Shown: piece by piece, positions 2,122 through 32,161 of the stretch
Position numbering within the stretch: position 1 is the stretch's first letter
Layout: each line of letters opens with the position of its first letter
The notes under the pieces: model-generated
The model's input: only the letters and a program-made list of their open reading frames with translations
Databases searched by the model: none
What the model was told of the DNA's origin: nothing
Translations under genes and position numbers: made by a program
Source: an uncultured bacterium
GTDB taxonomy: Bacteria; Acidobacteriota; Thermoanaerobaculia; Multivoradales; JAHZIX01
Reading direction: 5' to 3'
Assembly: GCA_965368975.1 (NCBI GenBank)
Contig: CBDUPA010000001.1
Location: forward strand, 96,001-160,000
DNA: 64,000 nucleotides

Positions 2122-2179
2122 GCCGATCCAGACTCGATGATGTGAGATGCAACCCGCAGACGAAGAAGGAACTGGTGCA

Positions 2180-5100
2180 ATGAGCCGAAACATGGAAGCA
2201 TTTTCTGATCTGGTCAGTCTGGGGCGTCATCGGGCCCAGCATCAGGCAGATCGCAAGGCCTATACATTCCTGGTCGACGGCGACGAAGAAGGTGCGTCGT
2301 ACGACTACGCCCAGCTCGACCTGCGCGCGCGGGCCATCGCCGCCCGTCTGCAGCAGATCGCCGAGCCGGGCGCCCGCGTGCTGTTGCTCTATCCGCCGGG
2401 TCTCGAAGTGCTGGCCGGCTTCTTGGGTTGCTTGTACGCCGGACTCGTTGCCATTCCGGCACCGCCACCCGACGGCGCGCGCCTGAAGCGCTCCTTACCG
2501 CGTCTGCAGTCGATCGTCGACGATTCCGGGGCCAGCATCCTGTGTACCACTGGCAACATCGACGAGCTGATCGACAAGCTCGGCGATCGCGTGCCGCAGT
2601 TCCAGCGCATGCAGCGCCTGGATACCGAAGCCCTGCCCAGCAGCCTGGCCGAAGCCTGGCGCATGCCCGACCTGCGTCCTGACTCCCTCGCCTACTTGCA
2701 GTACACCTCCGGCTCGACCTCCGCCGCCAAGGGTGTGATGATCAGCCATCGCAACGTGATGGCCAACCTGGCCTACAACCGCCAGCAGTGGCAGTACGAC
2801 GACAACAGCGTGGCGGTGACCTGGATGCCCTACTTTCACGACTACGGGCTGGTCGAGGGCTTACTACAGCCGCTGTTCTCGGGCATCCCCAGCTACGTCA
2901 TGTCGCCGCTCGCCTTCCTACGCCGGCCGCTGCGCTGGCTGGGTGCGATCGCCAAGTATCGCGCGACGCACAGCGCGGCGCCCAACTTCGGCTACGACCA
3001 CTGCGTGCAGCGCGCCAACGTCAAAGCCCTGGCCGGACTCGACCTGTCCAGCTGGCGCGTCGCCAGCACCGGTGCCGAGATGGTGCGCATCGCGACGCTA
3101 GAGCGCTTCGCCGACACCTTCAGCGTCTACGGTTTCCGCCCCGAAGCCTTCTTCCCCTCCTTCGGTCTCGCCGAGGCGACGTTGCTGTGCACCACCAAGC
3201 ACCGGCCCGAGCTGCCGCCGGCCTGCTTGCGCGTGCGCGCCCGGGCGCTCGAGCAGGGCTGGGTGGTGGCGGCTGGCGATAGTGACGAGCAGGCGTCGAG
3301 CGTGACGCTGGTCGGCTGTGGCACAGTCGGGCCCGGCGGGCTGCACGGCAGCGCGCGCATCGCCATCGTCGATCCCGAGACGCGCCGCCGCCGTTCAGCC
3401 GACGAGGTGGGCGAGATCTGGATCGGCGGTCCGTTCATCGCCGAGGGCTACTGGCAGAAGCCCGACCTGTCCGAGGAGACCTTCCGCGCCCGCCTGGCCG
3501 ACGATCCCGACGCTGGCACCTTCCTGCGCACCGGAGATCTCGGCTTTCTGCGCGACGACGAGCTGTACATTGTCAGCCGCATCAAGGACATGATCGTCAT
3601 CCGCGGCTACAACCACTATCCGCAGGACATCGAGGTGACGGTCGAGAATGCGCATCCGCTGCTGCGCACCAACTGCTCCGCCGTGTTCTCGGTCGAAGCC
3701 GATGGCGAGGAGCGCTTGGTGGTCGCCGCCGAGGTCGAACGCGGCTTCCGAGCCCAGCAGCTCGACGAGCTTGCCGACGCCATCCGCCAGGCGGTGCTGG
3801 AGAGCCACGAGTTGCAGGTCTATGCTCTGCGCCTGCTGCGGCGCGGCACGGTGCCCAAGACCTCCTCGGGCAAGGTGCAACGGCGCGCTGCCAAGGACGC
3901 CTTCCAGAAGGGCACGCTGGACGTGGTCGCCGAACTGACCGAGCGGGCCACCGAGGTGCGCTTCCCGACCGGCGATCTGACCGCCACCGGACCGTCCGAG
4001 AACTACACGACGCTGGTCGAACTGCTGCAGTACCAGGCGCGCCGCCATCCCGACCGCGTCGCCTACACGTTCCTCGAAGACGGCGAGCGCGAGGGCGACC
4101 GCATCACCTATGGCGAGCTCGACCGCGATGCCCGCTCGCTGGCGGCGTTGCTGCAGCAATTGGGGCAGCCGGGTGAGCGCGCGCTGCTGGTCTATCCCAA
4201 CGGTATCGAGTTCCTGGTCGCCTTCTTCGGTAGCCTCTATGCCGGCTTCACCGCCGTGCCGGCGCCGCCCCCCGAGGGCATCCGCCTGCAGCGCACGCTG
4301 CCGCGCCTGGAGGCGATCGCCAAGAACGCCGAACCGGTGGTCGTGCTGACCACTGCCCGCATCCTGGGCATGATCGACCAGTTCCTGGCCCACTCGCCGG
4401 CGCTCGAATCGGCGCGCTGGATCGCCACCAACTCGCTGGAAGCCGATCTGTCCAGCCAGTGGCAAGATCTGCGCGTGCGGCCAAGCAATCTGGCGGTGCT
4501 GCAGTACACGTCCGGCTCTACCGGCACGCCGCGCGGTGTCATGGTCAGCCACCGCAAGATCTTGCGCCACTGTGCCTTCATCGCCAGCGGCCTGGGCTAC
4601 GACGAAACCAGCGTCGAGTTGACCTGGGTCCCCAACTTCCACGACTACGGCCTGATGGAAGGCCTGCTGCAGCCCATGTACCAGGGCAGCCAGGGCCTCA
4701 TCATGGCGCCGCAGGACTTCATCCAGCACCCCGATCGCTGGCTGCGCGCGCTCAGCAAATTCCGCGTCACAAATAGTGGCGGCCCCAACTTCGCCTACGA
4801 GCTGGCGCTGGCCAGGACGCGTCCCGAGCAGCTCGAAGGCATCGACCTGAGCGGCATTCGCTCGCTGATCAACGCCGCCGAGCCGGTGCATGCCGAAACG
4901 ATGAAGAGGTTCTACGAGCGCTTCAAGGACCACGGCCTGCGCTGGCAGGCGCTGTTCCCGGCCTTCGGTCTGGCCGAGGCGACACTGGTGGTGACCGGCA
5001 AGGGACCGCAGGCCGATGGCCCGATCTTGACCCACGTCGAAGTCGAGCCCCTGGAGAAGGAAGGGCGCATCGTCGAGGCCGACGAGCCGAGCGACAGCAC

Positions 5101-8100
5101 GCGCACCTTCGTTGGCTGCGGCCGGCCGGTGCTCAACACCAAGGTGGTGATCGTCGACGCCGAGACGCAGACGCGCCGCGGTGACGACCGTGTAGGCGAG
5201 ATCTGGGTTTCGTCGTCGTCGATCCCGCGCGGCTACTGGCGCAATGCGGGAGCCACCGCCGAGACCTTCCAGGCCTACCTGGAGGACACCGGCGAAGGGC
5301 CGTTCCTGCGCACCGGCGACCTCGGTTTTCTGCGCCATGGAGAGCTGCACATCACCGGCCGTCTCAAGGATCTGATCATCATCCGCGGCCAGAACTACTA
5401 TCCGTCGGACATCGAGTGGACGCTCGAACACAGCCACCAGAACCTGCGGCCCGGCTGCTCGGCGGCCTTCTCGGTCGAGGCCGGCGGCGAGGAGCGCCTG
5501 GTGGTGATGGCCGAGGTGCGGCGCTGGCAGGAAGAGAGCGGCGAGCGCGTCGATCTCGATCCAGTGATCCAGGCGATTCGCGAAGAGGTGGTGGCGACCC
5601 ACGGCGTCGAGGTGTTCGCGGTCGAGCTGATCAAGGCGCGTGAGCTGATCAAGACATCGAGCGGCAAGATCGCCCGCGCCGCCTGCAAGCGCGCCTTCCT
5701 GGAAGGCACTGCCGACATGGTGCAGCGCTGGACGCAGGCTTTCGAGAGCGTCCGCCGGCAGAGCCAGGAAGAGCAGCGCGAACTGCTGCAGCGCCTGGAA
5801 CAGGCCGCCGCCGACGACGCCGCGCGCGCCGAGGCGAGCCAGCCGGCGAGTGGCAGCGAGGCCCAGATCCGCGCCTGGCTGGTGCAGCGCCTGGCGGCCC
5901 TGCTGCAGGTCGACGCCGCGGCGATCGACGTCACCGCGCCGTTCGCACGCTACGGCATGGACTCGGCGCGCTCGGTCAGCCTCTCCGGTGAGCTCGAAGA
6001 CTGGCTGAGCCGGCGCCTGCCGACCACCTTGCTGTACCAGTATCCGACGGTCGAGGCGCTGAGCCGCCACCTGGCTGGTGGCGACGCGGTGACTGCCGCC
6101 GCCAGCCGCGTCGCGGTGCGGGCCTCGCAGCACGAGCCGGTGGCCATCGTCGGCGTCGGCTGTCGCTTCCCCGGAGCCACCGGGCCAGACGCCTACTGGC
6201 GCCTGCTGTCCGAGGGCGTCGATGCGATCTCCGAGGTGCCGGCCGAGCGCTGGGACCTGGAGCGCCTCTACAACGCCGACCTGCAACCCGGCAAGATGAC
6301 CACCCGCTGGGGCGGGTTCCTCGACGATGTCGCCGGCTTCGACGCCTACTTCTTCGGCATCTCACCGCGCGAGGCGGTGCGCGTCGATCCGCAGCAGCGC
6401 TTGCTCCTGGAGGTCGCCTGGGAAGCGCTGGAGAACGCCGGCCTGGCCGCGGACCGCCTGGCCGGCAGCGACGCCAGCGTCTTCGTCGGCATCTCGCTCT
6501 CGGACTACGGCCTGCTACAACTGTCCGCCGGCCGCGATCGTCTGAACGCCTACACCGGCACCGGCACCGCGTTGTCGATCGCCGCGAACCGTCTCTCCTA
6601 CCAGCTCGACTTCCATGGTCCCAGTGTCGCCATCGATACCGCCTGCTCGTCGTCGCTGGTCGCGGTCCACCAGGCGGTGCAGGCACTGCGTCGCGGCGAG
6701 ACCAGCCTGGCGCTGGCCGGCGGCGTCAACCTGATGCTGTTGCCGGAGTGGCACATCACCTTCTCGCAGGCACAGATGATGGCTGCCGACGGCCGCTGCA
6801 AGACCTTCGACGCCAGCGCCGATGGCTATGTGCGCGGCGAAGGTTGCGGCCTGGTGGTGCTCAAGCGCCTGTCCGACGCGCACCGCGATGGCGACCCGAT
6901 CCTGGCTGTCGTTGCCGGTTCGGCGGTCAACCAGGACGGCCGTAGCAACGGCCTGTCGGCACCCAACGGCCTGGCGCAGCAGCAAGTCGTGCTGCAGGCG
7001 CTGCAAGACGCGCGGGTGAAGCCGGCGGATATCGACTACGTCGAGGCCCACGGCACCGGTACCGCGCTCGGTGATCCGATCGAAGTGCAGGCCCTGGGAG
7101 CCGTGCTGAGCGACGAACGCAGCCCTGAGCGTCCGGTCCTGCTCGGCTCGGCCAAGACCAACATTGGCCATCTCGAATCGGCTGCCGGCATTGCCGGTCT
7201 GATCAAGGTCGTGCTGTCACTGCAGCACCAGAAGCTGCCGCCGCACCTGCACTTCCGCCAACCCAACCCACACATTCCGTGGGATGATCTGCCGGTGCGC
7301 GTCACCGCCAGCGGCAGCGGCTGGACGCGCGGCGAGCGTCGCCGGGTGGCCGGCGTCAGCTCCTTTGGCTTCGGCGGCACCAACAGTCACGTCATCGTCG
7401 CCGAGGCTCCGGCGTCGGACGCCCGCGCGCAGACCCCGTCCTCGAGTCCGCGACCGCTGCAACTGCTGTGCCTGTCGGCACGCAGTGAAGGCGCCCTGCG
7501 CAAGCTCGCCGAGCGCTACGGCCGCTGGCTCGACGGCCATCCCGAGGCGTCGCTGGTCGACGTGTGCTACACGGCGCACACCGGCCGCGCGGCGCTGCCG
7601 TACCGCCTGGCGGTGACCGCAGCCGATGCGGCCTCGATGGCGGCGCAGCTGCGTGCTTTCGCCGACGCCAGCTCCGATCCGGAGCTGACCGCTGGCGTGC
7701 AGTTCGCCGGGCCGGCACCGCAGGAAGCGCCGAAAGTCGGCTTCCTGCTCAGCGGCCAGGGCAGTCAGTACGCCGGCATGGGCGCGCAGCTCTACGCCAC
7801 GCAGGCGGATTTCCGCGCCGCCTTCGACCAGGCGGCCGAGCTGCTCGGTCAGGCGATGTCGCTGCCGCGCTCGCTCGCCGACGTGGTCTTTGATCGCGGC
7901 GGCAACCCGAACGAGAGCGGCCAGTTGGTGACCACGGCCAACACCGACTTGCTGGCGCGCACCGACGTGACGCAGCCCGCCTTGTTCGCCCTCGAATGGG
8001 CGCTGGCCAAGCTCTGGGCGTCGTGGGGTATCGAGCCGGACGCGTTGCTCGGTCACAGCGTTGGTGAGTACGTCGGTGCCAGCCTGGCCGGCGCGCTGCC

Positions 8101-10486
8101 GATCGACGATGCGCTACCGCTGATCGCAACCCGTGGACGCCTGTTCGGGGCACTGCCGGCCGGCGGCGCGATGGCCGCCGCCTTCGCCTCCGAGGCGCAG
8201 GTGAAGCCGGTCGTCGAAGTCTACGGAGAGCGGCTGGCGATTGCCGCGGTCAATGGTCCGGCCAGCGTCACCATCTCGGGGCATGCCGACGCGGTGACCC
8301 AGGCGCGCCAGCAGTTGGAAGCGGCCGGCATCGAGACGCGGCCGATGAGCGTCTCGCACGCCTTCCACTCGGTGCTGCTCGAACCGGCGCTCGACGACTT
8401 CGAACAAGCGGCGCGCCGCCTGCGCGTGACGCCGCCCAATCGCCTGCTGGTGTCCAACGTCAGTGGTGACGTCTTCGGCGCTGGCGAGCTGCCCGATGCC
8501 GCCTACTGGCGTCGCCATGCCCGCTCGCCGGTGCGCTTCGCCGATGGCGTTGCGACACTGCGCCGCCTGGGCTGCGACGTGCTGCTGGAAGTCGGTCCGC
8601 ACCCGGCGCTGGCGGGCATGGCCAAGCGCTGCTTGCAGGCGGGTGAGGCCGTTCTACTCCCTAGCCTCAAGCGCAAGCAGGACGACTGGCAGATCGTGCT
8701 GCGCAGCCTCGGCGCGCTCTTCCTGCACGGTGTCGAGATCGACTGGCAAGGCTTCCATCGCCACGACCAGGCGCGCCGCATCGCGCTGCCGACCTATGCC
8801 TTCGAGCACCAGCGCTACTGGCTCGAAGCGCTGCCCGCCAACGCCTTCGAGGCGCGTCGCGAAGCCGCCGCGGCAGCCACCGGCAGCGGTTCGACGGTGA
8901 CCGACGCGGCGGCGGCGGTGCGCGCCGAGAGCGCGGCCATGGGTGCCCCGATGCAGGTACCGATGCAGGGCACCGCGGTCCAAGAAGTCGCGGCGGCCGA
9001 CGCCAAGCTCGAGCTGGCGCCCGAGGACGACGTGCTGCGGCGTTACTACCAGAGCCTGTCCGCCAGCTCGACCTACAGCGGGGAAGAAGGCGAGGCCGAG
9101 GCCTACCTGCACTTCGCCCCCTTCCTGGAGCCGGATCCCAACTTCTCGTGGACGGTGGTGCTGGCCGAGCCCGACAAGCACCCGATCGACGCCCAGCGGG
9201 TACGCGACAACGATGAAGAGATGCGGCGCGTGATGTTCTGCGGCGTCGACTTCTCGCGCGTGCGCCGGGTGCTCGACTTCGGCTGCGGCTACGGCACCGA
9301 CCTGATCGACCTGGCCAAGCAGCACGCGCACCTGCACCTCGACGGCTTCACCATCTCGCCCGAGCAGGTGGCCATCGGTCGCCGTCGCGCCGAGCGCATG
9401 GGCTTCTCCGATCGCCTGCGCTTCTTCAACTGCGACAGCACCAAGGACGAGTTCCCGGAGAGCTACCAGCTGATCCTCGGCTCGCAGGTGCTGCACCACA
9501 TCCGTGAAAAGCAGAAGGCGCTGGCCAACATCAGCCGTCACCTGGAGCCGGGCGGCCTGCTGGTGCTCGCCGAAGTGCTGTCGAACGTCGAAGGCTCGAT
9601 CGATCACGACGAGTCCTCGGCCCACTTCACGCCGCTGTCGCAGTGGGCCGAGCAACTCGCCGACCACGGCTTGCGCCTGCTCGAAGGTGTCGACGTGTCG
9701 CGCGAGATCGGCATCTTCCTTGACGATCCGCGCTTCGACGAGCACATGCAGCGCTATGCCGCCGAGGGCATGGAAGAGATGAAGATGGCTCACCTGGAAG
9801 GGCCGCAGCATCTCGGCAAGCTGCTGCGCAAGGGCCTGGCGCTGTATGGCCTGCTGACAGCGCAGCGCGATCCCTTCCTCGATCGCGACACCTTGCTGCG
9901 TCTCAACCGCGAAGCCTTCGCCCGCCTGGTGCCGTATCCGAAGGCGCTAGTCGACCTGGGAGCGGTGGCGCCCGAGCAGGCGGCAGCGGTGGTGCCAGCC
10001 GCCGCCCCGGTGGCGCGCGCCCCGGAGGTCGCGGCCATTCTCGACGCCACCGACGAGGACGAGCGGCGCACCCAGGTCGAAGGCTACCTGCGCACGCACG
10101 TCGCCCGAGTGCTGGAGCTGCCGCCATCGCAGGTCGAGGTGGCGACGCCGTTCACTCAGCTTGGCCTCGACTCGCTGATGGGCCTGGAACTGAAGAAGGC
10201 GATCGAGAGCGACTTCAACGTCGTCATCCCGGTGGTCAAGTTCTTCGAGGGGGTCGGCGTGCGGCAGCTGACGGACGAGCTGACCCGCCAGCTCGGTGAA
10301 GCCGCCCAGGCTCCCGCGGCCCCGGACGCCGGTGCGCTCGACGCGTCGCTCGAGGGGCAGCTTGGAGGTCAACTCGGTGGGCATCTCGATGCCCGCTCCG
10401 CCGAGAACCTGGCGGCACGGGTCGACCAGCTGAGCGACGAGCAGGTCGAAGCCCTGCTGGGCCAGCTGGCGAAGGAAAACAACTAG
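2180..10486 (+). CDS. Type I PKS loading/extension protein: FAAL-FAAL-ACP-KS-AT(malonyl)-O-methyltransferase-ACP
   Basis: Two acyl-AMP ligase domains ([13 protein letters not shown]...PKTSSGK, ~2200-3930; [13 protein letters not shown]...IKTSSGK, ~4000-5735). [64 protein letters not shown] 2180 follows AAGGA (ORF track starts at 2147). Confidence 0.93.
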
Positions 10487-10534
10487 ATACACCGTCCGAT
10501 GCTTGATTTGTCCTGTCTTGGAGGAGGTAGACCC

Positions 10535-22400: not shown

Positions 22401-25400
22401 TGAGGGTCACAAGGACCAGCGGTTGGTCGCCTACGTGCAGCCGGAAGGCCTGCCGGCCGAGCGCTTCGACGCCGCACCGGTGCTGGTACAGCTGCGCGAG
22501 CGCCTGCCCGAGTACATGGTGCCGTCGCAGCTGATCGCCCTCGACGCCTGGCCGCTGACCGCCAACGGCAAGCTCGATCGCAAGGCGTTGATGCAGCGGC
22601 CCCTACCCAGGCAAGAGGCGGCGTCGGCGTCGGACCAGACGGCAAGCCCCGCCGGGCACCCGAGCGGCGTGCCGGAAGACCTGGAAGCGAGCATCACCGC
22701 TATCTGGCGCGACGTGCTGGGTGTCGACAAGATCGGTGCCGAGCAGAGCTTCTTCGACCTCGGCGGTCACTCGTTGTTGCTGGCGCAGGTGCAGGCGCGC
22801 CTGCTCGAAGACCTGGGACGCGAGCTACCCCTGGTCGAGCTCTTCCAGCACCCGACGGTGCGCTCGTTGGCCCGTCACCTCAGTCCGCGCGGTGCCGAGG
22901 CCGTGCAGGCGCGCGTCAGCCGGCGCGGCGACGAGGACGCCGATGTCGCGGTGATTGGCGTCGCCGGTCGCTTCCCGGGTGCCGCCGATGTCGACCAGCT
23001 GTGGCACAACCTCGAGCAGGCGGTCGAGAGCATCGCCTTCTTCGAGCGCGACGAGGTGGAGGAAAGCCCTTTCGGCTTCGGCGACCCCGACAACCCGAAC
23101 TTCGTGCTTGCCGGCGGCCTGCTCGACGACCCCGATCTCTTCGACGCCGACTTCTTCGGCTACACACCGCGCGAGGCGCAGCTGCTCGATCCGCAGCAGC
23201 GCCTGTTCCTGGAAGCGTGCTGGCAGCTGCTGGAGCGTGCCGGCATCGACCCCGCGCGCTTCGCCGGCCGCGTCGGCGTCTTCGGCGGCACCGGGATCAG
23301 CGCCTACTTCAGCTACAACTTGATGAGCCGGCCCGACATCGTCGCCTCGGCCGGTGCCTTCCAGTTGTTGACCTCGTCGGACAAGGATTTCCTGCCCACG
23401 CGTGTGTCCTACAAGTTCAACCTGCGCGGACCGGCGGTCAACGTCCAGACCGCCTGCTCGACCTCCCTGGTCGCCGCGCACCTGGCCTATGAAAGTCTGC
23501 TGCGCGGCGAGTGCGACGTCGCCCTGGCCGGTGGTGTCAGTCTGCGCGTGCCGCAGCGCACCGGCTACCTCTATCAGCCCGGCATGATCCTGTCGCCGGA
23601 CGGTCACTGCCGCGCCTTCGACGCCGATGCCGCCGGCACGATCTTGGGCAGCGGCGTGGCGGTACTGGCCTTCAAGCGGCTGTCGGCGGCGCTCGCGGAT
23701 GGTGACCCCGTGCTGGCGGTGATCAAGGGTTCGGCGATCAACAACGACGGCTCGGACAAGGTTGGTTTCACCGCTCCCAGCGTCGACGGCCAGACCCAGG
23801 TGATCACCGACGCCCTGGCCAATGCCGGCGTCGACGCGCGTTCGATCGGCTATGTCGAGGCGCACGGCACGGGCACCGACCTGGGCGATCCGATCGAGGT
23901 GGCGGCGCTGACCCAGGCGTACCGCGCGCACACCGACGAGCGCGGCTTCTGTGCCCTCGGCTCGCTGAAGACCAACGTCGGGCACCTGGATACCGCGGCT
24001 GGCGCCGCCAGCTTGATCAAGACGGTGCTCAGCCTGCAGCACGCGGTGATCCCTGCCAGCCTGCACTACCAGCAGCCGAACCCGCAGATCGACTTCGACG
24101 CCAGTCCCTTCTTCGTCGCCGCCGAAACGCGTGCGTGGCCGGCACCGTCCGACGGCACCCCGCGGCGGGCGGGCGTTAGCTCCTTCGGCATCGGTGGCAC
24201 CAACGTCCACATGGTGCTCGAAGAGCCGCCGGCGCGGTCGCCCGGGGGGCAGGGGGCGTCCGGGTCGTCGCGGTCAGCACAGCTGCTCGTGCTGTCGGCC
24301 CGCTCCGACACCGCTCTCGAGGCCGCCACGGAGCGGCTGCACGGCTTCCTCGAAGCGCACCCCGAGGTGCCGTTGGCCGACGTCGCCTGGACGCTGCAGC
24401 ACGGTCGCCATCGCTTCGACTACCGGCGGGCTCTGGTGGTGCACGATCACGAGGACGCGCTGGCGGTGCTCTGCGGCGAGCACGGCAAGCGCCTGATCGG
24501 TCGTCACGACGGGGAGAGCGGCCGGCCCGTCGCCTTCCTGTTCCCTGGGCAGGGCGCCCAGTATCCCGGCATGGGCCGGCAGCTCTACGCGTTGGAAGCT
24601 GCCTACCGCGATGCCGTCGACGCGTGCGCCGAGCTGCTCCAGCCCCACCTGGCGGACACGGACTCCGACGGAGATATTCGCACGCTTCTGATGCCGCCGC
24701 TCGAAGACCTGGCGAGCGAGGCCGCTGAGCGGCTGGCTGCCGATCGCCTGGCTGCTGATCGACTGCGCCAGACACGTTTCGCGCAACCGGCATTGTTCGT
24801 CGTCGAGTACGCACTGGCGCAGCTGTGGCGCAGCTGGGGCATCGAGCCGCGCGCGCTGATCGGGCACTCGATTGGCGAGTATGTCGCCGCTTGCCTGGCC
24901 GGCGTCTTGACGCTGCCCGAGGCTCTGCGCCTGGTGGCGGCGCGCGGCCGCTTGATGCAAGGCCTGCCGGCCGGGGCCATGCTCAGCGTACCGTGCTCGG
25001 AGGCCGACCTGGAGGCGAGGCTGGCGAGTTGGCGCGATCAAGGCCGTCATACCGACGTCTGCGTCGCGACGATCAATGCGCCAGATCTGTGTGTGCTCGC
25101 CGGACCGATTCCGTCGATCGACGCCGTGCAGGCCGATCTGGAGGGCGAAGGTCTGGAAGTGCGCCGCTTGCACACCTCGCACGCCTTCCACTCGGCGATG
25201 ATGGAGCCGGTACTGTCGGCGTTCGGCGCCGAAGTGAAGAAGGCACAGCTGCAGGCGCCACGTCTGCCCTTCGTCTCCAACGTCACCGGCACTTGGATCC
25301 GCGCCGAGGAGGCGACCGATGCGGGCTATTGGGTGCGCCATCTGCGGCACGCGGTGCGCTTCGGCGACGGTGCAGCGCTGCTGCTCGAAGACGAGCGACT

Positions 25401-28400
25401 GGCACTGATCGAAGTCGGTCCCGGGCGGGGGCTGCGTACCCTGCTGCGCCGTCAGCCGGCGTTCCAGCAGTCGGACCCCAAGGAGGCCGGTCGCGTCCTG
25501 GCCGGCTCGCTGCGGGGTCCCAAGGACGAGGCCGCCGATCTCGAGTTCCTCCTGACCGAGCTGAGCCGCCTGTGGCTGGGCGGCGTCGATGTCGACTGGA
25601 GGGCGTTCCGGGGGCAGGAGACCCGGCACTCCGTCATCCTGCCGACCTACCCTTTCGAGCGCAAACGCCACTGGGTCGAACCGGGGGCCGGTCCCCAGCG
25701 GCTCGTGACGGGTGGTGCGACGGATCGACTGCCGCGGCTGGGCGATTGGGTCCACGTGCCGGCCTGGCGGCAGCAGCCACTGGCGGCGCGTGCCGCCGGT
25801 GTCGAGCGCCGGCGCGGTCCCTGGTTGGTGCTAGCCTTCGCCGGCGCTGCGCGCGACGCGTCCACCAAGCTGGCCGAGACGCTGGTGGCGGCCTTGCGGC
25901 GGCATGGTCACGAGGCTGACGTGCGCCTGCTGGAGAGTGCCAGCGTGCAGAGTGCCAGCGTGGACAGTCTTGGTGTGGACGGTATCAGCGCGAGTCCGGA
26001 CGCAGCCACCTGGCGCGCCGAGTTCGACGCAAGGGTCGGCGATGACAGCCTGCCGGCCGGCATTGTCGATCTACGTCCCTTCTGGTCCGCCGACCACCAG
26101 GAAGATGGACCCAAGGCCACCTCTGAGGCCGTTTCCGAGGCGAGCTTCCATGGTCCGCTGCAACTCCTGCAGGCCTTCGCCGGCTGCCTCGGTGAGCGGG
26201 GTACAGAGGCGGACAGCACGGCTCCGGGGCACCTCTACCTGGCGGTCAGCCGTGGCGCGCTGGCGATCGACGAGACCGAGGTGATGGCGGTCGAGCCCGA
26301 GCGCAGTGCGCTGCTCGGTCTGCTCACCGTCACCCAGCAGGAGAATCCGGACCTCGCCTGCCGCTTGCTCGATGTCGGCGCCACGAGCGGTGGCGCACAG
26401 GCGCTGGCCGAGATGCTGGTGCAGGAGCTGGAACGTGGCGACGAACTGGTGGTTGCCCGCCGTGGGCGCAGGGGGCGCTGGCTGCCCTCGCCGCGGTGTC
26501 TGCCCCTGCCGCCCGCCGAGCAGCGACCCGCGCTGCTGCGCGAGCAAGGGGTCTATCTGCTCACCGGCGGTCTGGGTGGTGTCGGCTTGGTGCTGGCGCG
26601 CTACCTGGCCCAGCGGGTCCCAGGCGTTCGCCTGGCACTCCTTGGACGCAGCGGCTTGCCGCCGCGCGCACACTGGGACGCTTTCGAGGCGGAGCACCAG
26701 GCGAACGACCGCCAGAGTCGAGCGATCGAGGCGGTGCGCGAGTTGGAGCAGCAGGGCGCCGAGGTCGAGGTGGTGGTCGCCGATGTGGCTGATCGGCAGG
26801 CGATGGCCGAGGCACTGGCCGCCGTGCGTCGACGTTTCGGGGCTCTCCATGGCGTGATCCATGCAGCGGGCCTGTCCGGGGAAGCTGCCTTCCGGCCCCT
26901 TGGCCAGCTGGACCGTGCTGCCTGTGAAGCGCAGTTCCGGCCCAAGATCACCGGCACGCGGGTGCTCGCCGAGCTCCTGCACGGGGGCTCGACTGCCGAT
27001 CCAGCCGCAGATCCCGCTCCCGACTTCGTCATGGTGACCTCGTCGATCTCCACCGTGCTGGGTGGTATTGGTTTCGCTGCTTACGCCGCTGCCAATCTCG
27101 GGCAAGATGCCCTTGTCCAGGACCAGGAAGCCCAGCAACAAGCCAGAGAAGCGGCGCCAGCGAGCACCACGCGCTGGCTGAGCATCGATTGGGACGCCTG
27201 GAATCTGGAAGCGGTGGCAGGCACGCAGTTGGCGCTGACGCCAGAAGAAGGTCAGGAACTGCTCGACCGCGTGCTGGCGCATGCCAGCAGTGGAGGAGAG
27301 GGGCACGTCGTCATCTCGGTCGGCGCCCTGGCGGCACGCATGCAGCGTTGGTGCACCGTCGAAGAGCTGCGTCGAGCCCGCGACGAACATCGTCGGGAAG
27401 CTGCCTCGGCGGCGTCCGGCGATGGGGACCGGCCGCAACTGGACACCGCCTACGTGGCGCCGCGCAGCGATGCCGAGACGGCCCTGGCGGCGATCTGGAG
27501 CGAGCTGCTGGGCATCGACCGCATCGGCATCCACGATGACTTCTTCGAGCTTGGCGGTCACTCGCTGCTGGTGACCCAGTTGCTGACCCGCATCCGGGAC
27601 CAGCTCGGTGCCGAGCTGGAAATGGCGATGGTCTTCTCGCGCCCGACAGTCGCCGAGCTGGCCGTCAGCCTGGCAGACGAGCTGCCGGCGGGCACGCGTC
27701 AGCTCGAGGCACCACCGATCGTACCGGTGCCGCGCGACCAGCCGCTGCGCTTGTCCTTTGGCCAGGAGCGCTTCTGGTTCCTGCAGCGTCTAGATCCCGA
27801 GAGCATCGCCTACAATCTGCCGGCGGCCATCCGCCTGCTCGGCCGGCTGGACGTGAGGGCACTGCAACTTTCCTTCGACGCCATCGCTTGCCGCCACGAG
27901 ATGCTGCGCACGCGCTTCGTGGAACGAGACGGCAAGCCGTTCCAGCTCGTCGAGCCTCGCCTGCGCTACCCGTTGCCAGTGGTCGACCTCAGTGCTCTCG
28001 AAGCCGCACGCCGTGAGCAGCTGGTCTATGCCCTCGCCTTCCGCTACGCCGACGATCCCTTCGATCTTGCGGCTCTGCCGCTGCTGCGCAACTGCCTGCT
28101 GCGGCTAGCGGTCGGCGAGCACACCTTCCTGACCGTCGGGCATCACATCATCTCCGATGGTTGGTCGGGCATTCTCTTCGTCCAGGAGCTGGGGGAGCAC
28201 TATCGCACCTTCCACGGGAAGCAGTCTGCAGACAGTGGACCTGCCAGCGTCGAGATGCCCGAGGCGTTGCCGTTGCAGTATGGCGATTATGCCGTCTGGC
28301 AGCGCGATTGGTTGCAGGGCGAGGTGCTGCAACAGCAGATCGACTTCTGGTGCCGCCAGCTGGAGCCGCCACCGCCGGCGCTGCGCCTGCCCTACGACCG

Positions 28401-30645
28401 GCCGCGCGTCAGTGGGGAGACGGCGCCCGCCGGGCGACTGTCGACCCGTGTCCAAGCGCCCGTGCTGTCGAAGCTACGCAGCCTGGCGCTGAACTTCTCT
28501 GCACGCGAGGGCGAAGCGCAGGCGCACGGCATCACCTTGTTCATGATCCTGATGGCAGCCTACTTCACGCTGCTGTATCGCTACAGCGGTCAGAGTGACC
28601 TCGCCGTCGGTACTCCGATCGCCAATCGTCACCGCTCCGGGACCGAGGGCCTGGTGGGCTTGTTCATCAATACGCTGGTCTTGCGGTTGCATCTCGACGC
28701 GGCGTCGTCGGATGGTGGTGCGCTTCGGTTCCCGCGCCTGGTCCAGCAGCTGCAGCAGGTCTCGCTCGCCGCCTACGATCAGCAGGACTTGCCGTTCGAC
28801 GAGCTGATCAAGCGACTGCCGGCAGACGGCGGCGAGCGGCGTACGCAGCGATCGCTGTTCACCACCATGCTCGCCTTCAACCACGAGCCGCCGCCGGCTC
28901 TGCAGCTACCGGAGTTGGAGATCGGCCTGGTCGACCTCGATCAGCGGCGTGTCGAAGCGATGTACGACTTCGTCCTCGGCATGACCGACTTCGGCGATCA
29001 TCTCTACGTTTCGGTCGAGTACGATCGCTCGCGCTTCGACGCGACGTCGGCGCAGCGCTTCAGCGAGGCCTACCTGCGCGTGCTGGGAGAGATCGCCACG
29101 GACGCCGAGCGCAGCCTCATCGAATTGCCGGTGCTAGGGGCCGGTGAGCGTCACCAGTTGCTGGTCGAGAACCGGCGCGCAGATGCAGCCTGGGTCGGAC
29201 GCCACCGCGACCGGTTGCCGTCGCAGTGGAGCGGACAAGCCTTGCGAGGCGTCTACGTGCTCGATCCCCAAGCCGGCCTGACGCCCATGGGGGCCGTCGG
29301 TGAGTTGTACGTCGAGGCCGAGGACCAGCCGTCGCTGACGCCGGTACCCGAGGGGCAGCCCGTACGACCCCGCTTCGCACCCGACCTGCAGCTCTGGCCG
29401 ACCGGTGTACGAGTGCAGCGGCGGGCCAGCGGCGAGCTGCAATTGCCTGGCGAAGCCAACTATCCTTTCGTCGACCTCGGCCGGCGCGCTCGCGGCAGTG
29501 CCGACAACGAAGAAGAGCGGCGGCAGGAAGAACAGGCGGCCGATCAAGTGTGGAGCCAGGTCAGCAGCCGGCAGGAGAAGCTCTCAGCCAAGAAGAAGGC
29601 CATGCTCGCAGCCCGCTTGCGCGGTGCCCTGCGCTCCAAGACCGCGAATGCCGAGGCGGCTGGATCGGCACGACCGAAGACCACGGCAGGAGCTTCTGCG
29701 CCGTCCCGCGTGCGCGACCTGGAGGCCGTCAAGGCGGCCCTGGCACGCAAGCGTGCCGCCGCCGCCCAAATGCGCTCAGAGGACTCCCTGCTCCTCAAGA
29801 TCCAGCCGGCCGGAGAGCAGCCGGCCGTAGCCTGTGTACATGCGATCGCCGGTGACGTCACCTGCTATCTGGCGCTGGCCGACCATCTCGGTCGAGACCG
29901 GCCGGTCTACGGTCTGCAAGCTGAGGGTCTCGATGGCAGCCGCCAACCGCTGCGCCGCGTCGAGGACATGGCTGCCCGGTACCTGGACATCCTCCGACGG
30001 GAGCAGCCGGCAGGCCCTTACCTGCTCGTCGGCTGGTCCATGGGTGGGGTCATCGCGCTGGAAATGGCGCAGCAGCTGGGCGCGGCCGGCGAGAACGTGC
30101 CGTTGCTCGTGCTGCTGGAACCGTCTGTACCCGGAATCCAGGTGCCGCTGGACGATACCGGCATCGTCGAGTCGCTGGCTCGTGACCTCGAGAGCGCTCT
30201 CGACCAGCCGCTGGATGTGACCCTCGAGCAGCTGCTGGAGAAAGATCTGGAAACTCAGCTGACCACATTGTTCGAACAGGTCAAGCGCCACGGTCTGCCG
30301 TTCTTCGATTTCGACCGCTCGGCGCTGTCCTCACTCTTCCGCCTCTACAAGGCCAACGTCGCGGCCCTGCAGGACTACCGCCCACAGCCCTACGCCGGCC
30401 GCAGCGCCGTGTTCATCGCCCGCGAGCGGCCGCCGGCCACCGAGCCGGAGCCGTCCGATTTCTGGACCGGGGGGTTACTACAGGATCACCAGCGGGTCGA
30501 CGTCGGCGGCGGCCACACCTCGATGCTGCAAGAGCCGCACGTACGGGATCTGGCGCGCCGTTTGACGCGACTTTTCACCCAGGCGGCCGAGGATCTTGAC
30601 CCTGCAGCCAAGGACGCTGATGCCGCGGAGTCAATTCGTGATTGA
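19462..30645 (+). CDS. Hybrid NRPS-PKS termination protein: C-A(Ser)-PCP-KS-AT(malonyl)-KR-ACP-C-(A remnant)-TE
   Basis: C HHIISDAWS. A code DVWHFSLVDK. PCP LGGHSLL. KS VQTACSTS. AT GHSIG/HAFH. KR TGGLGGVG...YAAAN. Carrier LGGHSLL. Second C HHIISDGWS. TE GWSMGG and GGHTSML. ATGA overlap with the upstream gene. Confidence 0.93.
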   Translation: MSDRPRPEQLSPAEKRELLAKLMRQRDQGGPRFHPLSFAQQRLWFLDRLDPSGRHHRIYQAFQLRGALRPQFLHRALQAIVDRHDSLRTFFVTTAGKPAAAVAPGLRLRLPVLDLHLTTWAKPGDAQQTEEAVLQRALERPFQLDRGPLLRCTLLRCSEDRHLLLVEMHHIISDAWSVGVLLRELAALYDAQVRAATSQQAPAPGLADALPPLRAQYPSYARWQRQRLQGDLLAENLAWWRQQLAALPALLELPLDRPRPPVQSHHGGVLPVHWPAHLYERVRELGRRNGASAFVVLLAAFQAFLGRLTGARDLAVGTPVAGRDRSELEGLIGFFINSLVLRANLQGDSPAGPGFDSFLRRTRDAFLGAFDHSQVPFDRLVEELKPERNLSYHPLYQVDFQLQAEPVPPLELSGLVIEPRFLDAGLTGFDLAVQLEAQPDGSVAGWVQHGTAILDRSTVERWLRGYRTLVESALDTPAGCLFELSVLTAAERHQLVREWNDTETAFEDLFEDPSHGAFVRETLLHRAFEAQAAAVPDAPALTFRGDTWSYRQLDQRANRLAHYLRRLGVRRETRVAVCLERSHELVVALYAVLKAGGAYVPVDPGYPAERLEFLLRDAAAPVLLTQERLLGDLGLEDQGVEGLCLDRDWPRIEQAVDATRAEEPPRVELQPENAAYVIYTSGSTGQPKGAVNRHLSIDNRLAWMQRAYPLDASDVVLQKTPFSFDVSVWEFFWPLRQGARLVMAEPGGHQDPAYLIRTVAAEGVTTMHFVPSMLQLFVDHPRAADANAALRRVFCSGEALPPELVQRFFERVGVRPGQTAIELHNLYGPTEAAVDVTYEPCSPGKIGHSVAIGRPVANTSVVVLDSARRPLPIGVAGELFLGGVQLARGYHRRPSLTAQRFVPDPLATSGPGSRLYATGDETRLLPDGRVEFLGRIDFQVKLRGLRIELGEIEAALRTAEVDGRTLVHEALVLVLDAASGEGHKDQRLVAYVQPEGLPAERFDAAPVLVQLRERLPEYMVPSQLIALDAWPLTANGKLDRKALMQRPLPRQEAASASDQTASPAGHPSGVPEDLEASITAIWRDVLGVDKIGAEQSFFDLGGHSLLLAQVQARLLEDLGRELPLVELFQHPTVRSLARHLSPRGAEAVQARVSRRGDEDADVAVIGVAGRFPGAADVDQLWHNLEQAVESIAFFERDEVEESPFGFGDPDNPNFVLAGGLLDDPDLFDADFFGYTPREAQLLDPQQRLFLEACWQLLERAGIDPARFAGRVGVFGGTGISAYFSYNLMSRPDIVASAGAFQLLTSSDKDFLPTRVSYKFNLRGPAVNVQTACSTSLVAAHLAYESLLRGECDVALAGGVSLRVPQRTGYLYQPGMILSPDGHCRAFDADAAGTILGSGVAVLAFKRLSAALADGDPVLAVIKGSAINNDGSDKVGFTAPSVDGQTQVITDALANAGVDARSIGYVEAHGTGTDLGDPIEVAALTQAYRAHTDERGFCALGSLKTNVGHLDTAAGAASLIKTVLSLQHAVIPASLHYQQPNPQIDFDASPFFVAAETRAWPAPSDGTPRRAGVSSFGIGGTNVHMVLEEPPARSPGGQGASGSSRSAQLLVLSARSDTALEAATERLHGFLEAHPEVPLADVAWTLQHGRHRFDYRRALVVHDHEDALAVLCGEHGKRLIGRHDGESGRPVAFLFPGQGAQYPGMGRQLYALEAAYRDAVDACAELLQPHLADTDSDGDIRTLLMPPLEDLASEAAERLAADRLAADRLRQTRFAQPALFVVEYALAQLWRSWGIEPRALIGHSIGEYVAACLAGVLTLPEALRLVAARGRLMQGLPAGAMLSVPCSEADLEARLASWRDQGRHTDVCVATINAPDLCVLAGPIPSIDAVQADLEGEGLEVRRLHTSHAFHSAMMEPVLSAFGAEVKKAQLQAPRLPFVSNVTGTWIRAEEATDAGYWVRHLRHAVRFGDGAALLLEDERLALIEVGPGRGLRTLLRRQPAFQQSDPKEAGRVLAGSLRGPKDEAADLEFLLTELSRLWLGGVDVDWRAFRGQETRHSVILPTYPFERKRHWVEPGAGPQRLVTGGATDRLPRLGDWVHVPAWRQQPLAARAAGVERRRGPWLVLAFAGAARDASTKLAETLVAALRRHGHEADVRLLESASVQSASVDSLGVDGISASPDAATWRAEFDARVGDDSLPAGIVDLRPFWSADHQEDGPKATSEAVSEASFHGPLQLLQAFAGCLGERGTEADSTAPGHLYLAVSRGALAIDETEVMAVEPERSALLGLLTVTQQENPDLACRLLDVGATSGGAQALAEMLVQELERGDELVVARRGRRGRWLPSPRCLPLPPAEQRPALLREQGVYLLTGGLGGVGLVLARYLAQRVPGVRLALLGRSGLPPRAHWDAFEAEHQANDRQSRAIEAVRELEQQGAEVEVVVADVADRQAMAEALAAVRRRFGALHGVIHAAGLSGEAAFRPLGQLDRAACEAQFRPKITGTRVLAELLHGGSTADPAADPAPDFVMVTSSISTVLGGIGFAAYAAANLGQDALVQDQEAQQQAREAAPASTTRWLSIDWDAWNLEAVAGTQLALTPEEGQELLDRVLAHASSGGEGHVVISVGALAARMQRWCTVEELRRARDEHRREAASAASGDGDRPQLDTAYVAPRSDAETALAAIWSELLGIDRIGIHDDFFELGGHSLLVTQLLTRIRDQLGAELEMAMVFSRPTVAELAVSLADELPAGTRQLEAPPIVPVPRDQPLRLSFGQERFWFLQRLDPESIAYNLPAAIRLLGRLDVRALQLSFDAIACRHEMLRTRFVERDGKPFQLVEPRLRYPLPVVDLSALEAARREQLVYALAFRYADDPFDLAALPLLRNCLLRLAVGEHTFLTVGHHIISDGWSGILFVQELGEHYRTFHGKQSADSGPASVEMPEALPLQYGDYAVWQRDWLQGEVLQQQIDFWCRQLEPPPPALRLPYDRPRVSGETAPAGRLSTRVQAPVLSKLRSLALNFSAREGEAQAHGITLFMILMAAYFTLLYRYSGQSDLAVGTPIANRHRSGTEGLVGLFINTLVLRLHLDAASSDGGALRFPRLVQQLQQVSLAAYDQQDLPFDELIKRLPADGGERRTQRSLFTTMLAFNHEPPPALQLPELEIGLVDLDQRRVEAMYDFVLGMTDFGDHLYVSVEYDRSRFDATSAQRFSEAYLRVLGEIATDAERSLIELPVLGAGERHQLLVENRRADAAWVGRHRDRLPSQWSGQALRGVYVLDPQAGLTPMGAVGELYVEAEDQPSLTPVPEGQPVRPRFAPDLQLWPTGVRVQRRASGELQLPGEANYPFVDLGRRARGSADNEEERRQEEQAADQVWSQVSSRQEKLSAKKKAMLAARLRGALRSKTANAEAAGSARPKTTAGASAPSRVRDLEAVKAALARKRAAAAQMRSEDSLLLKIQPAGEQPAVACVHAIAGDVTCYLALADHLGRDRPVYGLQAEGLDGSRQPLRRVEDMAARYLDILRREQPAGPYLLVGWSMGGVIALEMAQQLGAAGENVPLLVLLEPSVPGIQVPLDDTGIVESLARDLESALDQPLDVTLEQLLEKDLETQLTTLFEQVKRHGLPFFDFDRSALSSLFRLYKANVAALQDYRPQPYAGRSAVFIARERPPATEPEPSDFWTGGLLQDHQRVDVGGGHTSMLQEPHVRDLARRLTRLFTQAAEDLDPAAKDADAAESIRD

Positions 30646-32083: not shown

Positions 32084-32121
32084 GTCGGTTCCCGCTTCGC
32101 GGGCTTGCCGAGCAAGGTCAG

Positions 32122-32161
32122 CGCGGAGGTCACCCTAGGGTGTCCTCCGCGTTTGTCGTTT
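32122..32161 (+). terminator. Probable intrinsic terminator after the porin gene
   Basis: CGCGGAGG-T-CACCCTAGGGTG-T-CCTCCGCG hairpin followed by TTTGTCGTTT. Confidence 0.6.

Follow-up and report, generated by a model that had tools for sequence, protein, structure and literature searches.

Thalassospiramides contain statine-like gamma-amino acids, among them 4-amino-3,5-dihydroxypentanoic acid as well as a 4-amino-3-hydroxy-5-phenylpentanoic unit (PMC3705361). In the synthetases which make them, cross-module loading occurs and modules lacking a domain are served from elsewhere on the line (bioRxiv 10.1101/560987). Pepstatin biosynthesis relies on NRPS and PKS genes that are discrete, and the statine hydroxyls are formed by an F420H2-dependent tandem ketone reduction (PMC12081711).

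The locus described here lies in a stretch of 64,000 nucleotides, called the window in the following. With a probability of about 0.6 it is predicted to encode an intact, uncharacterised hybrid PKS/NRPS line, which would assemble an N-(3-methoxy-2-alkenoyl)-Ahppa-(4-amino-3,5-dihydroxypentanoyl) chain and release it by a thioesterase (TE). No characterised cluster of this architecture was found in protein, locus, and literature searches (MIBiG being outside their scope), which fits the original prediction, where the architecture had not been recognised either. The myxoglucamide cluster was considered as a match and rejected for its different gene content, as it has glycosyltransferases together with a dioxygenase and an FMN monooxygenase (PMC13638107).

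Gene Organisation

Domain layouts were obtained with Pfam on the entire proteins and on excised pieces, and all features of the window given below lie on the forward strand. Positions 2147-30645 hold three uninterrupted and closely spaced open frames, ORF1 (2147-10486, 2779 aa), ORF2 (10499-19465, 2988 aa), and ORF3 (19462-30645, 3727 aa), the first two separated by 12 nt and the last two overlapping by 4 nt. ORF1 has the order FAAL-FAAL-ACP-KS-AT-OMT-ACP, ORF2 the order C-A-PCP-KS-AT-ACP-KR, and ORF3 the order C-A-PCP-KS-AT-KR-ACP-C-(A relic)-(PCP relic)-TE, the relics having been recognised by alignment. DH or ER families did not score with Pfam in the three whole proteins or in the pieces linking AT and KR, as had been predicted. 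The line had originally been limited to 2180-30645; position 2180 is the in-frame methionine 12 of ORF1 and also the start of a database copy of the protein (P0001, 2768 aa). Genes of the operon that lie further upstream, as well as a divergent FAAL-NRPS gene, fall outside this limit and may contribute to the product.

The gene at the left edge of the window (ORF0, positions 1..2121) belongs to the same operon, and its final A domain, PCP, and tail fall within the window as judged by Pfam and codes. The whole gene extends over G000:C1:89482-98121 and encodes 2879 aa with the layout C*-A-PCP-E-C-A-PCP, followed by an acidic tail with a terminal docking-type motif. The first A domain carries a Ser code and the second the code DAEDIGTVVK, and in the N-terminal C domain (C*) the position of the His motif reads PALCAD, both histidines being gone. 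Further upstream lies ORFc, a lone DCL-like C domain. ORFc, ORF0, ORF1, ORF2, and ORF3 share one direction, the successive gaps being 110, 25, and 12 nt, followed by the 4-nt overlap. The operon faces the divergent FAAL-NRPS gene ORFm, which has one C domain without catalytic His (FD) and a last A domain that looks live and is not followed by a carrier. The code of this A domain is DIVQLGLVWK, which is assigned to the Gly type only by comparison with the Gly code. Assigning its substrate from ranks among solved structures was rejected, as the scores of the two A domains in LgrA add up and place it first for any A-domain query. A free-standing carrier protein was not found within C1:70001-135000.

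The four non-terminal synthases (ORF0, ORF1, ORF2, and ORFm) all end in docking tails of one kind, of the ..SDEQVEALL type in ORF1 and ORF2, where the ORF2 tail reads ..DLADEQVDALL... Corresponding N-terminal helices of the EKRxLLA type are found in ORF2 (EEKRQLLAEVL) and ORF3 (AEKRELLAKL), whereas ORF0 and ORFc show no docking helix at the N-terminus.

Downstream of ORF3, a porin-like outer-membrane protein candidate is encoded at 30767..32083, with a signal peptide and a C-terminal Phe. It matched no Pfam or NCBIfam family, and an atlas search gave as a lead one neighbouring cluster in which Porin_O_P is annotated on 45%. It is followed at 32231..34681 by a duplicated MacB/FtsX permease of the ADOP family (Pfam MacB_PCD and FtsX; TIGR03434 with 946 bits). 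The two adjoining proteins may be exporters of the product. As side observations, the sigma-54 activator family gave 31 matches, 25 of them with E <= 1.9e-41, STK-TPR genes are also present, and the genome collection has no other member of the host's genus. Together with the ADOP permease and the porin-like protein, the sigma-54 activators and STK-TPR genes hint at a Gram-negative organism resembling Myxococcota or Acidobacteriota.

Tandem Loader and O-Methyltransferase Module of ORF1

A FAAL start had been predicted, and priming by FAAL was borne out, except that two FAAL domains in tandem stand in place of the single one according to Pfam. FAAL domain 1 (2228..3925, aa 28-593) consists of an AMP-binding part at aa 28-436 and a DIP2-like C-terminal part at aa 481-593, and FAAL domain 2 (4028..5716, aa 628-1190) of an AMP-binding part at aa 628-1031 and a DIP2-like part reaching to about aa 1190. 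The two are 46% identical, their core motifs are intact, and PF23024 scores on both. The best solved relatives of both domains are FAALs, among them 7R7E-G, LpFAAL 3KXW, and FadD32, where 7R7E-G is the FAAL domain of a Picosynechococcus PCC 7002 PKS (PMC11837247). Domains 1 and 2 align with 7R7E-G from end to end with E values of 6e-153 and 5e-140, outranking every acyl-CoA ligase listed. An ACP follows (5876..6073, aa 1244-1309, PP-binding), giving the succession of FAAL-type adenylating domain and ACP which makes up a FAAL loading module. In the FAAL-ACP-KS loading of olefin synthases and lipopeptides the described bacterial lines have one FAAL, whereas ORF1 has two. Two fused FAAL-like domains are likewise found in eukaryotic DIP2, and a phrase search of the literature for tandem FAALs matched DIP2 papers only; the word tandem is absent from a 2025 review on FAALs. 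The fused FAAL-FAAL loader recurs in metagenome proteins without names, and the bacterial tandem pairs found here have several independent origins.

The predicted single malonyl module with an embedded O-methyltransferase (O-MT) was found as expected. KS (aa 1330-1703) and malonyl-type AT (aa 1866-2197, with GHSVGE and HAFHS) occupy 6134..8737, the O-MT 9041..9940 (about aa 2299-2598, with Pfam Methyltransf_12/25/31 at 2363-2508), and the second ACP (aa 2647-2710) together with the docking-type tail 10085..10483. The O-MT has the SAM motif LDFGCGYG, and over about 300 residues, end to end, its best solved relatives are StiE (6ECT, E 1.8e-57) and StiD (6ECW, E 5.4e-53), with E values from 1.8e-57 to 1.4e-52 for the four structures 6ECT, 6ECX, 6ECW, and 6ECU of these two enzymes. 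Pfam detected no KR in this module. StiD and StiE of stigmatellin biosynthesis methylate hydroxyls made by a KR, in which they differ from the reaction proposed here. A KS-AT-OMT-ACP module without KR is the layout for the formation of beta-methoxyacrylates, and the enol-ether O-MT modules of the myxothiazol and melithiazol type would resemble ORF1 in this respect. Methylation of an enol oxygen is suggested for ORF1 because an O-MT is present and a KR is absent, which is the one ground for it.

Statine-Type Modules of ORF2 and ORF3

In ORF2, an N-terminal helix, C (aa 39-515, HHIGIDF), A (aa 548-1055), and PCP (aa 1124-1191) lie at 10499..14071, followed at 14156..16636 by KS (aa 1220-1598, TACSTS type) and malonyl-type AT (aa 1761-2046). 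The ACP (17105..17293, aa 2203-2265, LGGHSL) comes next, upstream of the KR, which occupies 17597..19462 together with the docking-type tail and has its structural part at aa 2367-2437 and its catalytic part at aa 2616-2823 (GGLGGIG, YSAAN). No carrier follows this KR. Code and domains of the predicted A(DAWTVAAVCK)+KS-AT-KR module were thus recovered, the order being KS-AT-ACP-KR instead. This order was met in none of 160 (80 + 80) related loci and in none of 149 other representative proteins. The canonical position of the KR before the ACP, departed from in ORF2, is kept in ORF3, where code and order of the A(DVWHFSLVDK)+KS-AT-KR module are as predicted: a helix, C (aa 33-496, HHIISDA), A (aa 528-1037), and PCP (aa 1078-1140) lie at 19462..22881, and KS (aa 1161-1536), malonyl-type AT (aa 1692-2043), KR (aa 2363-2580), and ACP (aa 2674-2734) at 22942..27663.

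The A-domain codes were read by motif position, using the GrsA numbering, and both A domains have the motifs A3, A7, A8, and A10 including the A10 lysine. The assignment of DAWTVAAVCK to Phe and of DVWHFSLVDK to Ser is supported by printed codes as well as by ranks among solved structures. The Phe enzymes TycA and GrsA gave 3e-101 and 6e-93 with the A domain of ORF2 versus 2e-83 and 3e-79 with that of ORF3, and the Ser enzyme EntF gave 4e-121 with ORF3 versus 5e-63 with ORF2. All three ATs of the line contain the malonyl motifs GHSxGE (GHSIGE in ORF2 and ORF3) and HAFHS, and all three KS domains the catalytic Cys, HGTGT, and N(I/V)GHL, which in ORF2 and ORF3 read TACSTS, HGTGT, and NVGHL. Both KRs retain the NADPH motif GGLGG(I/V)G (GGLGGVG in ORF3), PK(V/I)(S/T)G, and Y(S/A)AAN with the catalytic Tyr (YAAAN in ORF3). 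With these residues kept they are predicted to be active, and function is predicted also for the KR of ORF2 behind its ACP. The LDD and W motifs, which mark the stereochemical types of KR domains, are both absent from the two KRs.

In a tree of C domains, the C domain of ORF2 falls into a supported clade of 10 (SH-aLRT 98). The clade consists of six domains fed by a PKS ACP, two fed by a FAAL ACP, the ORF2 domain itself, and the first C domain of ORFm, and includes none fed by a PCP. This position within a clade of ACP donors supports the hand-over from ORF1 to ORF2.

Terminal Region of ORF3

Downstream of its last ACP, ORF3 has a second C domain (27748..29163, aa 2763-3234) with an intact HHIISDG, which lacks a working A domain or PCP of its own, and a TE (29827..30564, aa 3456-3701, GWSMGG). 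What lies between them at 29233..29751 are relics of a lost module, an A fragment at about aa 3258-3352 and a carrier-like stretch at about aa 3360-3430, in place of the canonical ending C-A-PCP-TE. Only the motifs A6-A8 are left in the A relic of about 95 residues, with TGD changed to TGV and GRxD to GEAN, and it aligns with the final A domain of ORFm at 37% identity over 111 aa (E 7e-8). In residues 3230-3460 no Pfam AMP-binding or PP-binding family was detected at E <= 0.01. In an alignment anchored on the TE, the column of the attachment serine in the carrier-like stretch is occupied by Leu. A carrier profile scored -0.6 bits there, which is not significant, shuffled sequences reaching 6.3. 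The closing module is vestigial, the carrier part of this statement being based on the one anchored alignment. The predicted closing residue X therefore finds no module to add it, since only the A remnant and a carrier-like stretch without serine follow the last C.

The stretch before the TE (LSAKKKAMLAARL) was also considered as a docking helix inside ORF3 that would receive the tail of ORF0. This was rejected, as the TE-anchored alignment fits a carrier relic better. ORF3 residues 3340-3727 paired with the C-terminal 80 residues of ORF0 scored 0.07 against a mark of 0.34 in a complex prediction run without controls, which counts neither for nor against such docking. The intact HHIISDG and the full-length profile match of the last C domain would be unexpected in a mere spacer.

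Relatives of the Locus

One relative was found among metagenomes, a contig (L091) on which the order of ORF0 end, ORF1, and ORF2 start recurs. Its ORF1 relative shares all seven domains and is 58% identical in full-length alignment (55-56% in local alignment). It is followed by an ORF2-like C domain at 49% identity, and the ORF0-like end of the contig carries the same A code DAEDIGTVVK. The contig stops short of the informative parts. In the databases searched, no relative with the layout of the C-terminal part of ORF2 and no close relative of ORF3 was found, and for ORF1 and ORF3 the closest entries are unnamed or generic. A seemingly close relative (P0241, "93%") was rejected as it is the query's own protein.

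Proposed Assembly and Alternative Readings

The sequence itself shows how the domains are ordered, which catalytic and AT motifs they carry, and which codes the A domains have, and the chemistry is deduced from this. One or both FAALs would adenylate a fatty acid and load it onto the first ACP, KS and AT of ORF1 would add malonate, and O-methylation of the beta-keto/enol intermediate would give a 3-methoxy-2-enoyl thioester. With the ORF1 tail docked on ORF2, the C domain of ORF2 would join this acyl chain to Phe bound to the PCP. KS and AT would extend it by malonate on the oddly placed ACP, and reduction by the downstream KR would yield the 4-amino-3-hydroxy-5-phenylpentanoyl (Ahppa) unit. 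ORF3 would repeat this sequence of steps with Ser to form a 4-amino-3,5-dihydroxypentanoyl unit on the ACP at aa 2674-2734. Because the last module is decayed, the TE most likely takes the chain directly from this ACP. The chain would leave as the acid or be closed to a lactone or lactam via the 5-OH, the 3-OH, or the amide N. As the docking tails of ORF0 and ORFm have no obvious partner, the real product may be larger.

It is possible, without being probable, that ORF1-3 are part of a larger, non-colinear line complementing itself in trans, with a longer or branched lipopeptide as product. The last C domain of ORF3 would then condense the chain onto a carrier in trans, the candidate being Ser on the first PCP of ORF0, and ORF0 would add D-Ser (via its E domain) and probably a basic residue (DAEDIGTVVK) before release by the TE of ORF3. 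A role in trans is conceivable as well for the lone C of ORFc and for the Gly-type A of ORFm that has no carrier. The defects are complementary: in ORF3 a live C is followed by relics of A and PCP, in ORF0 a live A-PCP stands beside a dead C, and in ORFm, where a C is dead as well, a live A lacks a carrier. The tight co-directional spacing from ORFc to ORF3, the docking tail shared by all four non-terminal synthases, and the recurrence of gene order and DAEDIGTVVK code in L091 agree with such a line, and cross-module loading and missing domains are documented in the thalassospiramide synthetases. On the other hand, a receiving helix is not seen on ORF0 and ORFc, the stretch before the TE aligns better as carrier relic than as docking helix, the single relative L091 ends before the informative parts, and the reading starts from motif loss alone. 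Slightly more doubtful still is a working patchwork, in which incomplete modules on separate proteins supply what the others lack, the tandem FAALs load two different acids, and the KR acts from behind the ACP. Four synthases with a docking tail would in this case have to be matched with two visible receiving helices. If true, the product would be a lipopeptide that is longer or branched, or alternative entry points would give rise to a small set of related products.

A decaying cluster, which makes nothing or shunt products only and in which the defects are stages of gene loss, is quite unlikely. The two C domains without catalytic His, the A relic, the carrier-like stretch without serine, the A domain without carrier, and the failure to find a close ORF3 relative in the databases searched would be explained by it, but five frames of 2779-3727 aa run without stop or frameshift, all catalytic motifs are kept in the three elongation modules and the TE, and ORF1 with its flanks is conserved at 49-58% identity, including all seven ORF1 domains, in L091. 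The line as originally predicted, with a single FAAL, three canonical modules, and a working final module adding X in cis, would account for the full C and the TE after the last ACP. With just 222 residues between the last C and the TE, in which no AMP-binding or PP-binding domain reached the threshold and the mutated A6-A8 and the Leu in the serine column are what is left, it is very improbable. The preferred reading is the intact three-protein line with release from the last ACP.

Comparison with Known Systems

If expressed, the preferred line would yield a lipidated compound that is new and in which two hydroxy-gamma-amino acids are adjacent. This motif is found in natural products binding to proteases, and the compound is therefore a reasonable target for heterologous expression; the inhibition of aspartic proteases by the product is conjecture. 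For enzymology the interest lies in the FAAL-FAAL loader, undescribed for bacteria in the literature searched, in the KS-AT-ACP-KR order of ORF2, and in the active-looking C domain of ORF3 stranded beside relics of A and carrier. The enzyme logic is familiar and the layout is odd, and the known logic of PKS and NRPS is not overturned.

The products of the pepstatin and ahpatinin systems of Streptomyces likewise contain a pair of statine-type residues, and Ahppa can be one of them. The two units had been expected to form as in pepstatin. The mechanism differs, however, since pepstatin is made with discrete enzymes and F420H2-dependent reduction, and the line described here is multimodular with in-line KRs. 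An F420-type reductase was not among the ORFs scanned around the cluster. Closer in mechanism are the Ttc and Ttm synthetases for thalassospiramides from Thalassospira and Tistrella, which are also hybrid NRPS-PKS and which form the gamma-amino acids of a lipopeptide from amino acid, malonate, and KR. Their first domain is a lipo-initiating C, and their six modules include a DH, an N-MT, and, at module 4, a trans-AT (bioRxiv 10.1101/560987). They build a macrocycle without an O-MT module, whereas the present line has a FAAL-PKS start, cis ATs, no DH, and a StiE-type O-MT. With these differences the locus does not belong to their family, and the thalassospiramide synthetases are its closest working analogue and not its relatives.

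Genes and Domain Organization

Three co-directional open frames occupy positions 2147–30645 of the window, in a draft genome of 7.1 Mb and 65.5% G+C. They are ORF1 (2147–10486, + strand, 2779 amino acids), ORF2 (10499–19465, +, 2988 amino acids), and ORF3 (19462–30645, +, 3727 amino acids). Position 2180, where the original prediction had let ORF1 begin, is the in-frame methionine 12 and the start in the database copy P0001 (2768 amino acids). Domain layouts were obtained with Pfam, run on the whole proteins and on cut pieces. ORF1 reads FAAL (residues 28–593), FAAL (628–1190), ACP (1244–1309), KS (1330–1703), AT (1866–2197), MT (2363–2508), and ACP (2647–2710). ORF2 consists of C (39–515), A (548–1055), PCP (1124–1191), KS (1220–1598), AT (1761–2046), ACP (2203–2265), and KR (2367/2616–2823). 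In ORF3, C (33–496), A (528–1037), PCP (1078–1140), KS (1161–1536), AT (1692–2043), KR (2363–2580), ACP (2674–2734), and a further C (2763–3234) are followed by 222 residues and a TE (3456–3701). Three architectural oddities are seen in this assembly line: a tandem FAAL, an ACP before the KR in ORF2, and a decayed last module.

Motif reading found the KS cysteine and both histidine motifs in all three KS domains, with the TACSTS form in the second and third, and GHSxGE and HAFHS, the malonyl pattern of AT domains, in all three ATs. Both KRs carry GGLGG(I/V)G, the lysine-bearing PK(V/I)xG, and the Y(S/A)AAN tyrosine, and A3, A7, A8, and the A10 lysine are intact in the A domains of both ORF2 and ORF3. 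DH and ER had been read as absent, and neither family scored with Pfam on the whole ORF1–ORF3 proteins or on the AT-KR linker pieces.

Predicted Substrates and Methylation

The ten A domain pocket positions were read via the landmarks FDxS, xxP(S/T), xGE, and NxYGPTE with GrsA numbering, yielding DAWTVAAVCK for ORF2 and DVWHFSLVDK for ORF3, letter for letter the codes read originally. Among solved enzymes the phenylalanine-activating TycA and GrsA scored 3e-101 and 6e-93 against the ORF2 domain and 2e-83 and 3e-79 against that of ORF3; the serine-activating EntF gave 4e-121 with ORF3 and 5e-63 with ORF2. DVWHFSLVDK is described in PMC3795760 as an exact match to the serine-activating domain of enterobactin synthetase, and DAWTVAAVCK is predicted to select L-phenylalanine in the lunaemycin cluster (bioRxiv 10.1101/2022.12.15.520542). 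Enzyme scores and printed codes thus both agree with the phenylalanine (ORF2) and serine (ORF3) proposed earlier.

The MT of ORF1 (METHYLTRANSFERASE) can be aligned with the StiE and StiD O-MT domains for about 300 residues (6ECT, E 1.8e-57; 6ECW, E 5.4e-53). As these are far ahead of the remaining methyltransferases in the match listing, all at 1e-13 or worse, it is an O-MT. Since its module lacks a KR, we infer as the natural reading that it would methylate the enol, giving a 3-methoxy-2-enoyl unit.

The Tandem FAAL

A single FAAL start had been proposed, and this has to be revised: ORF1 contains two complete FAALs, 46% identical to each other and each retaining the core motifs. Over their entire length both match solved FAALs (7R7E-G, 6e-153 and 5e-140, followed by LpFAAL and FadD32). 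Custom domain profiles found at least two fused FAALs (two or three) before ACP-KS in 8 of 14 database proteins, the window's own protein included. These loaders are the one at window 2228–5716 and those of the unnamed proteins P0002–P0006, P0017, and P0028, one case being FAAL-FAAL-FAAL. In a tree of FAAL domains the tandem pairs fall at several separate places, so that duplication occurred more than once, in independent events. One of the 80 metagenome loci fetched with ORF1 had the tandem (contig L091). No description of bacterial tandem FAALs was found in the literature searched; a phrase search returned DIP2 papers only, and the word "tandem" is absent from the accessible part of a 2025 FAAL review.

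The sole relative with the ORF1 layout among those searched is P0002, an unnamed 2737-amino acid metagenome protein with 58% identity in full-length and 55–56% in local alignment. Its 11.9-kb contig, L091, has the same gene order as the ORF0 end, ORF1, and the ORF2 start, ORF0 being the NRPS gene upstream of ORF1 in the same operon. The upstream gene ends with A(DAEDIGTVVK)-PCP-tail, sharing 53% identity with the end of ORF0; the middle one is the ORF1 homologue with all seven domains, and the downstream one opens with the N-terminal helix and a C domain that shares 49% identity with the one of ORF2.

The ACP before the KR

The order AT-CP-KR occurred in none of the printed layouts of 80 related genome loci and 80 metagenome loci. 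Among the 150 best representatives from a library of 1.84 billion proteins, 99 had AT-KR-CP and one had AT-CP-KR, the latter being the ORF2 protein itself. Among solved structures the ORF2 KR is closest to a KR from a keto-acid NRPS module (6ULW, 1.4e-29) and to the PksJ KRs, which rank above cis-AT PKS KRs. The ACP-KR part was covered by no match in 40 genomes from the host's family and order, a set in which the host alone represents its genus.

Surroundings of the Assembly Line

ORF0 (G000:C1:89482–98121 in contig coordinates, +, 2879 amino acids) runs off the left edge of the window and reads, by Pfam and codes, C*-A(DVWHVSLVDK, serine type)-PCP-E-C-A(DAEDIGTVVK)-PCP with an acidic tail. 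Its first C domain (L004:1–1500) has lost both histidines, with PALCAD in place of HHxxxD, and forms the longest branch among the C domains of the tree. Upstream lies ORFc (L001:11651–13372, +), a stand-alone C with SHLVVDA that clusters with C domains located after E domains. The divergent ORFm (L001:2029–11286 = G000:C1:78029–87286, − strand, 3085 amino acids) is FAAL-ACP-C-A(serine type)-PCP-C*(FD; catalytic histidine lost)-A with a docking-type tail; its last A is not followed by a carrier. This A domain has the code DIVQLGLVWK, which resembles that for glycine. All ten carriers in G000:C1:70001–135000 lie inside the five synthases, and no free-standing carrier protein was found there.

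Housekeeping-type genes (Clp ATPase, arginine deiminase, S9 peptidase) lie to the left, and a porin-like protein, an ADOP/MacB-type permease, and then kinases and regulators to the right, which places the cluster at about G000:C1:78000–131000. The porin-like outer-membrane protein, without a Pfam family, and the duplicated permease of the ADOP family (TIGR03434, 946 bits) directly follow the TE gene (window 30767–34681, +) and may form an export pair. Window 38183–43398 and 43467–47588 hold two adjoining Ser/Thr kinase-TPR genes and, on the opposite strand, a 1373-amino acid hybrid sensor (Reg_prop/Y_Y_Y/HisKA/HATPase/receiver/AraC HTH). Some 26 kb beyond the cluster on the downstream side begins another, separate NRPS gene (window 57141–64000, into L003:2–6988), which reads C-A-PCP-C-A-PCP, continued by C-A-PCP-C-A-PCP. 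The genome is rich in further giant PKS/NRPS frames; on contig C25 open frames reach 14,804 amino acids. Upstream of the cluster, DUF4365, a Ser/Thr kinase domain, and an FGE-sulfatase-like domain are fused in a single protein (L002:11419–13767), near which a second FGE-sulfatase-like protein is encoded (L002:18068–19129). A WhiB-family match (G000:C32:13288–13497, 39.4 bits, above cut-off) occurs in this otherwise Gram-negative-looking genome with 25 strong sigma-54 activator genes and a porin-like protein; among 14 control genomes WhiB was matched in Corynebacterium only.

Probable Chain Transfer and Release

A hand-over from ORF1 to ORF2 to ORF3 is supported by gene order, docking motifs, and the C-domain tree. 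C-terminal tails of the (L/M)SD-E-x-x-E-ALL type are common to ORFm, ORF0, ORF1, and ORF2, and the N-terminal EKRxLLA helix occurs only in ORF2 and ORF3. The tree comprised 101 C domains labelled by our own profile-based annotation, those without clear upstream context being excluded. The ORF2 C domain falls in a clade of ten (SH-aLRT 98) whose labelled members are six PKS-fed, two FAAL-ACP-fed, and no PCP-fed domains. By the usual assembly-line rules, a fatty acyl-ACP would be extended with malonate and O-methylated to the 3-methoxy-2-enoyl, joined by an amide bond to phenylalanine, converted with malonate and KR to the 4-amino-3-hydroxy-5-phenylpentanoyl unit (Ahppa), joined by an amide bond to serine, and converted with malonate and KR to 4-amino-3,5-dihydroxypentanoyl-ACP.

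The end of the line depends on the last module of ORF3, which, judged from its sequence, appears decayed, with A and carrier reduced to relics. Pfam gave no hit to an A or carrier family at E<=0.01 in the stretch from the last C to the TE. Residues ~3258–3352 align with motifs A6–A8 of the last ORFm A domain at 37% over 111 residues (E 7e-8), with TGD changed to TGV and GRxD to GEAN; the remaining A domains of the cluster reach E 0.17 at best. In an alignment anchored on the TE with eight real carrier-TE pairs, residues ~3360–3430 are colinear with a carrier. The helix-1 tryptophan and the AP(S/T) turn are retained, the serine column holds leucine, and the distance to the TE serine, 140 residues, compares with 128–147 in 16 real pairs; the carrier profile alone gave no significant score on this stretch. 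No counterpart of the ORF3 tail was found, the best database matches having ~40% identity over about half of the query. As the module is decayed, the simplest ending would be direct release by the TE from the ACP carrying the 4-amino-3,5-dihydroxypentanoyl chain, as an acid, as a lactone closed via the 3- or 5-OH, or as an N-acyl lactam. The last C, unlike the neighbouring relics, has an intact HHIISDG and a full-length profile match, and the main rival, that this stranded domain acts in trans with carriers of ORF0 and others, is worth testing: dead and live domains are complementary across the synthases, and synteny is conserved.

Comparison with Known Systems

This cluster is one of many orphan hybrid clusters, and its enzymology is of a known kind. 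The original prediction recognised no characterised cluster, and no characterised or close uncharacterised counterpart emerged from what was searched. The statines of pepstatin, its model, arise by a different route, and a protease-inhibitor role of the product is conjectural. The nearest described systems by function are the thalassospiramide synthetases, which differ from the ORF1–ORF3 line in start, module set, and tailoring but likewise tolerate missing domains and also form serine- and phenylalanine-derived hydroxy-gamma-amino acids.
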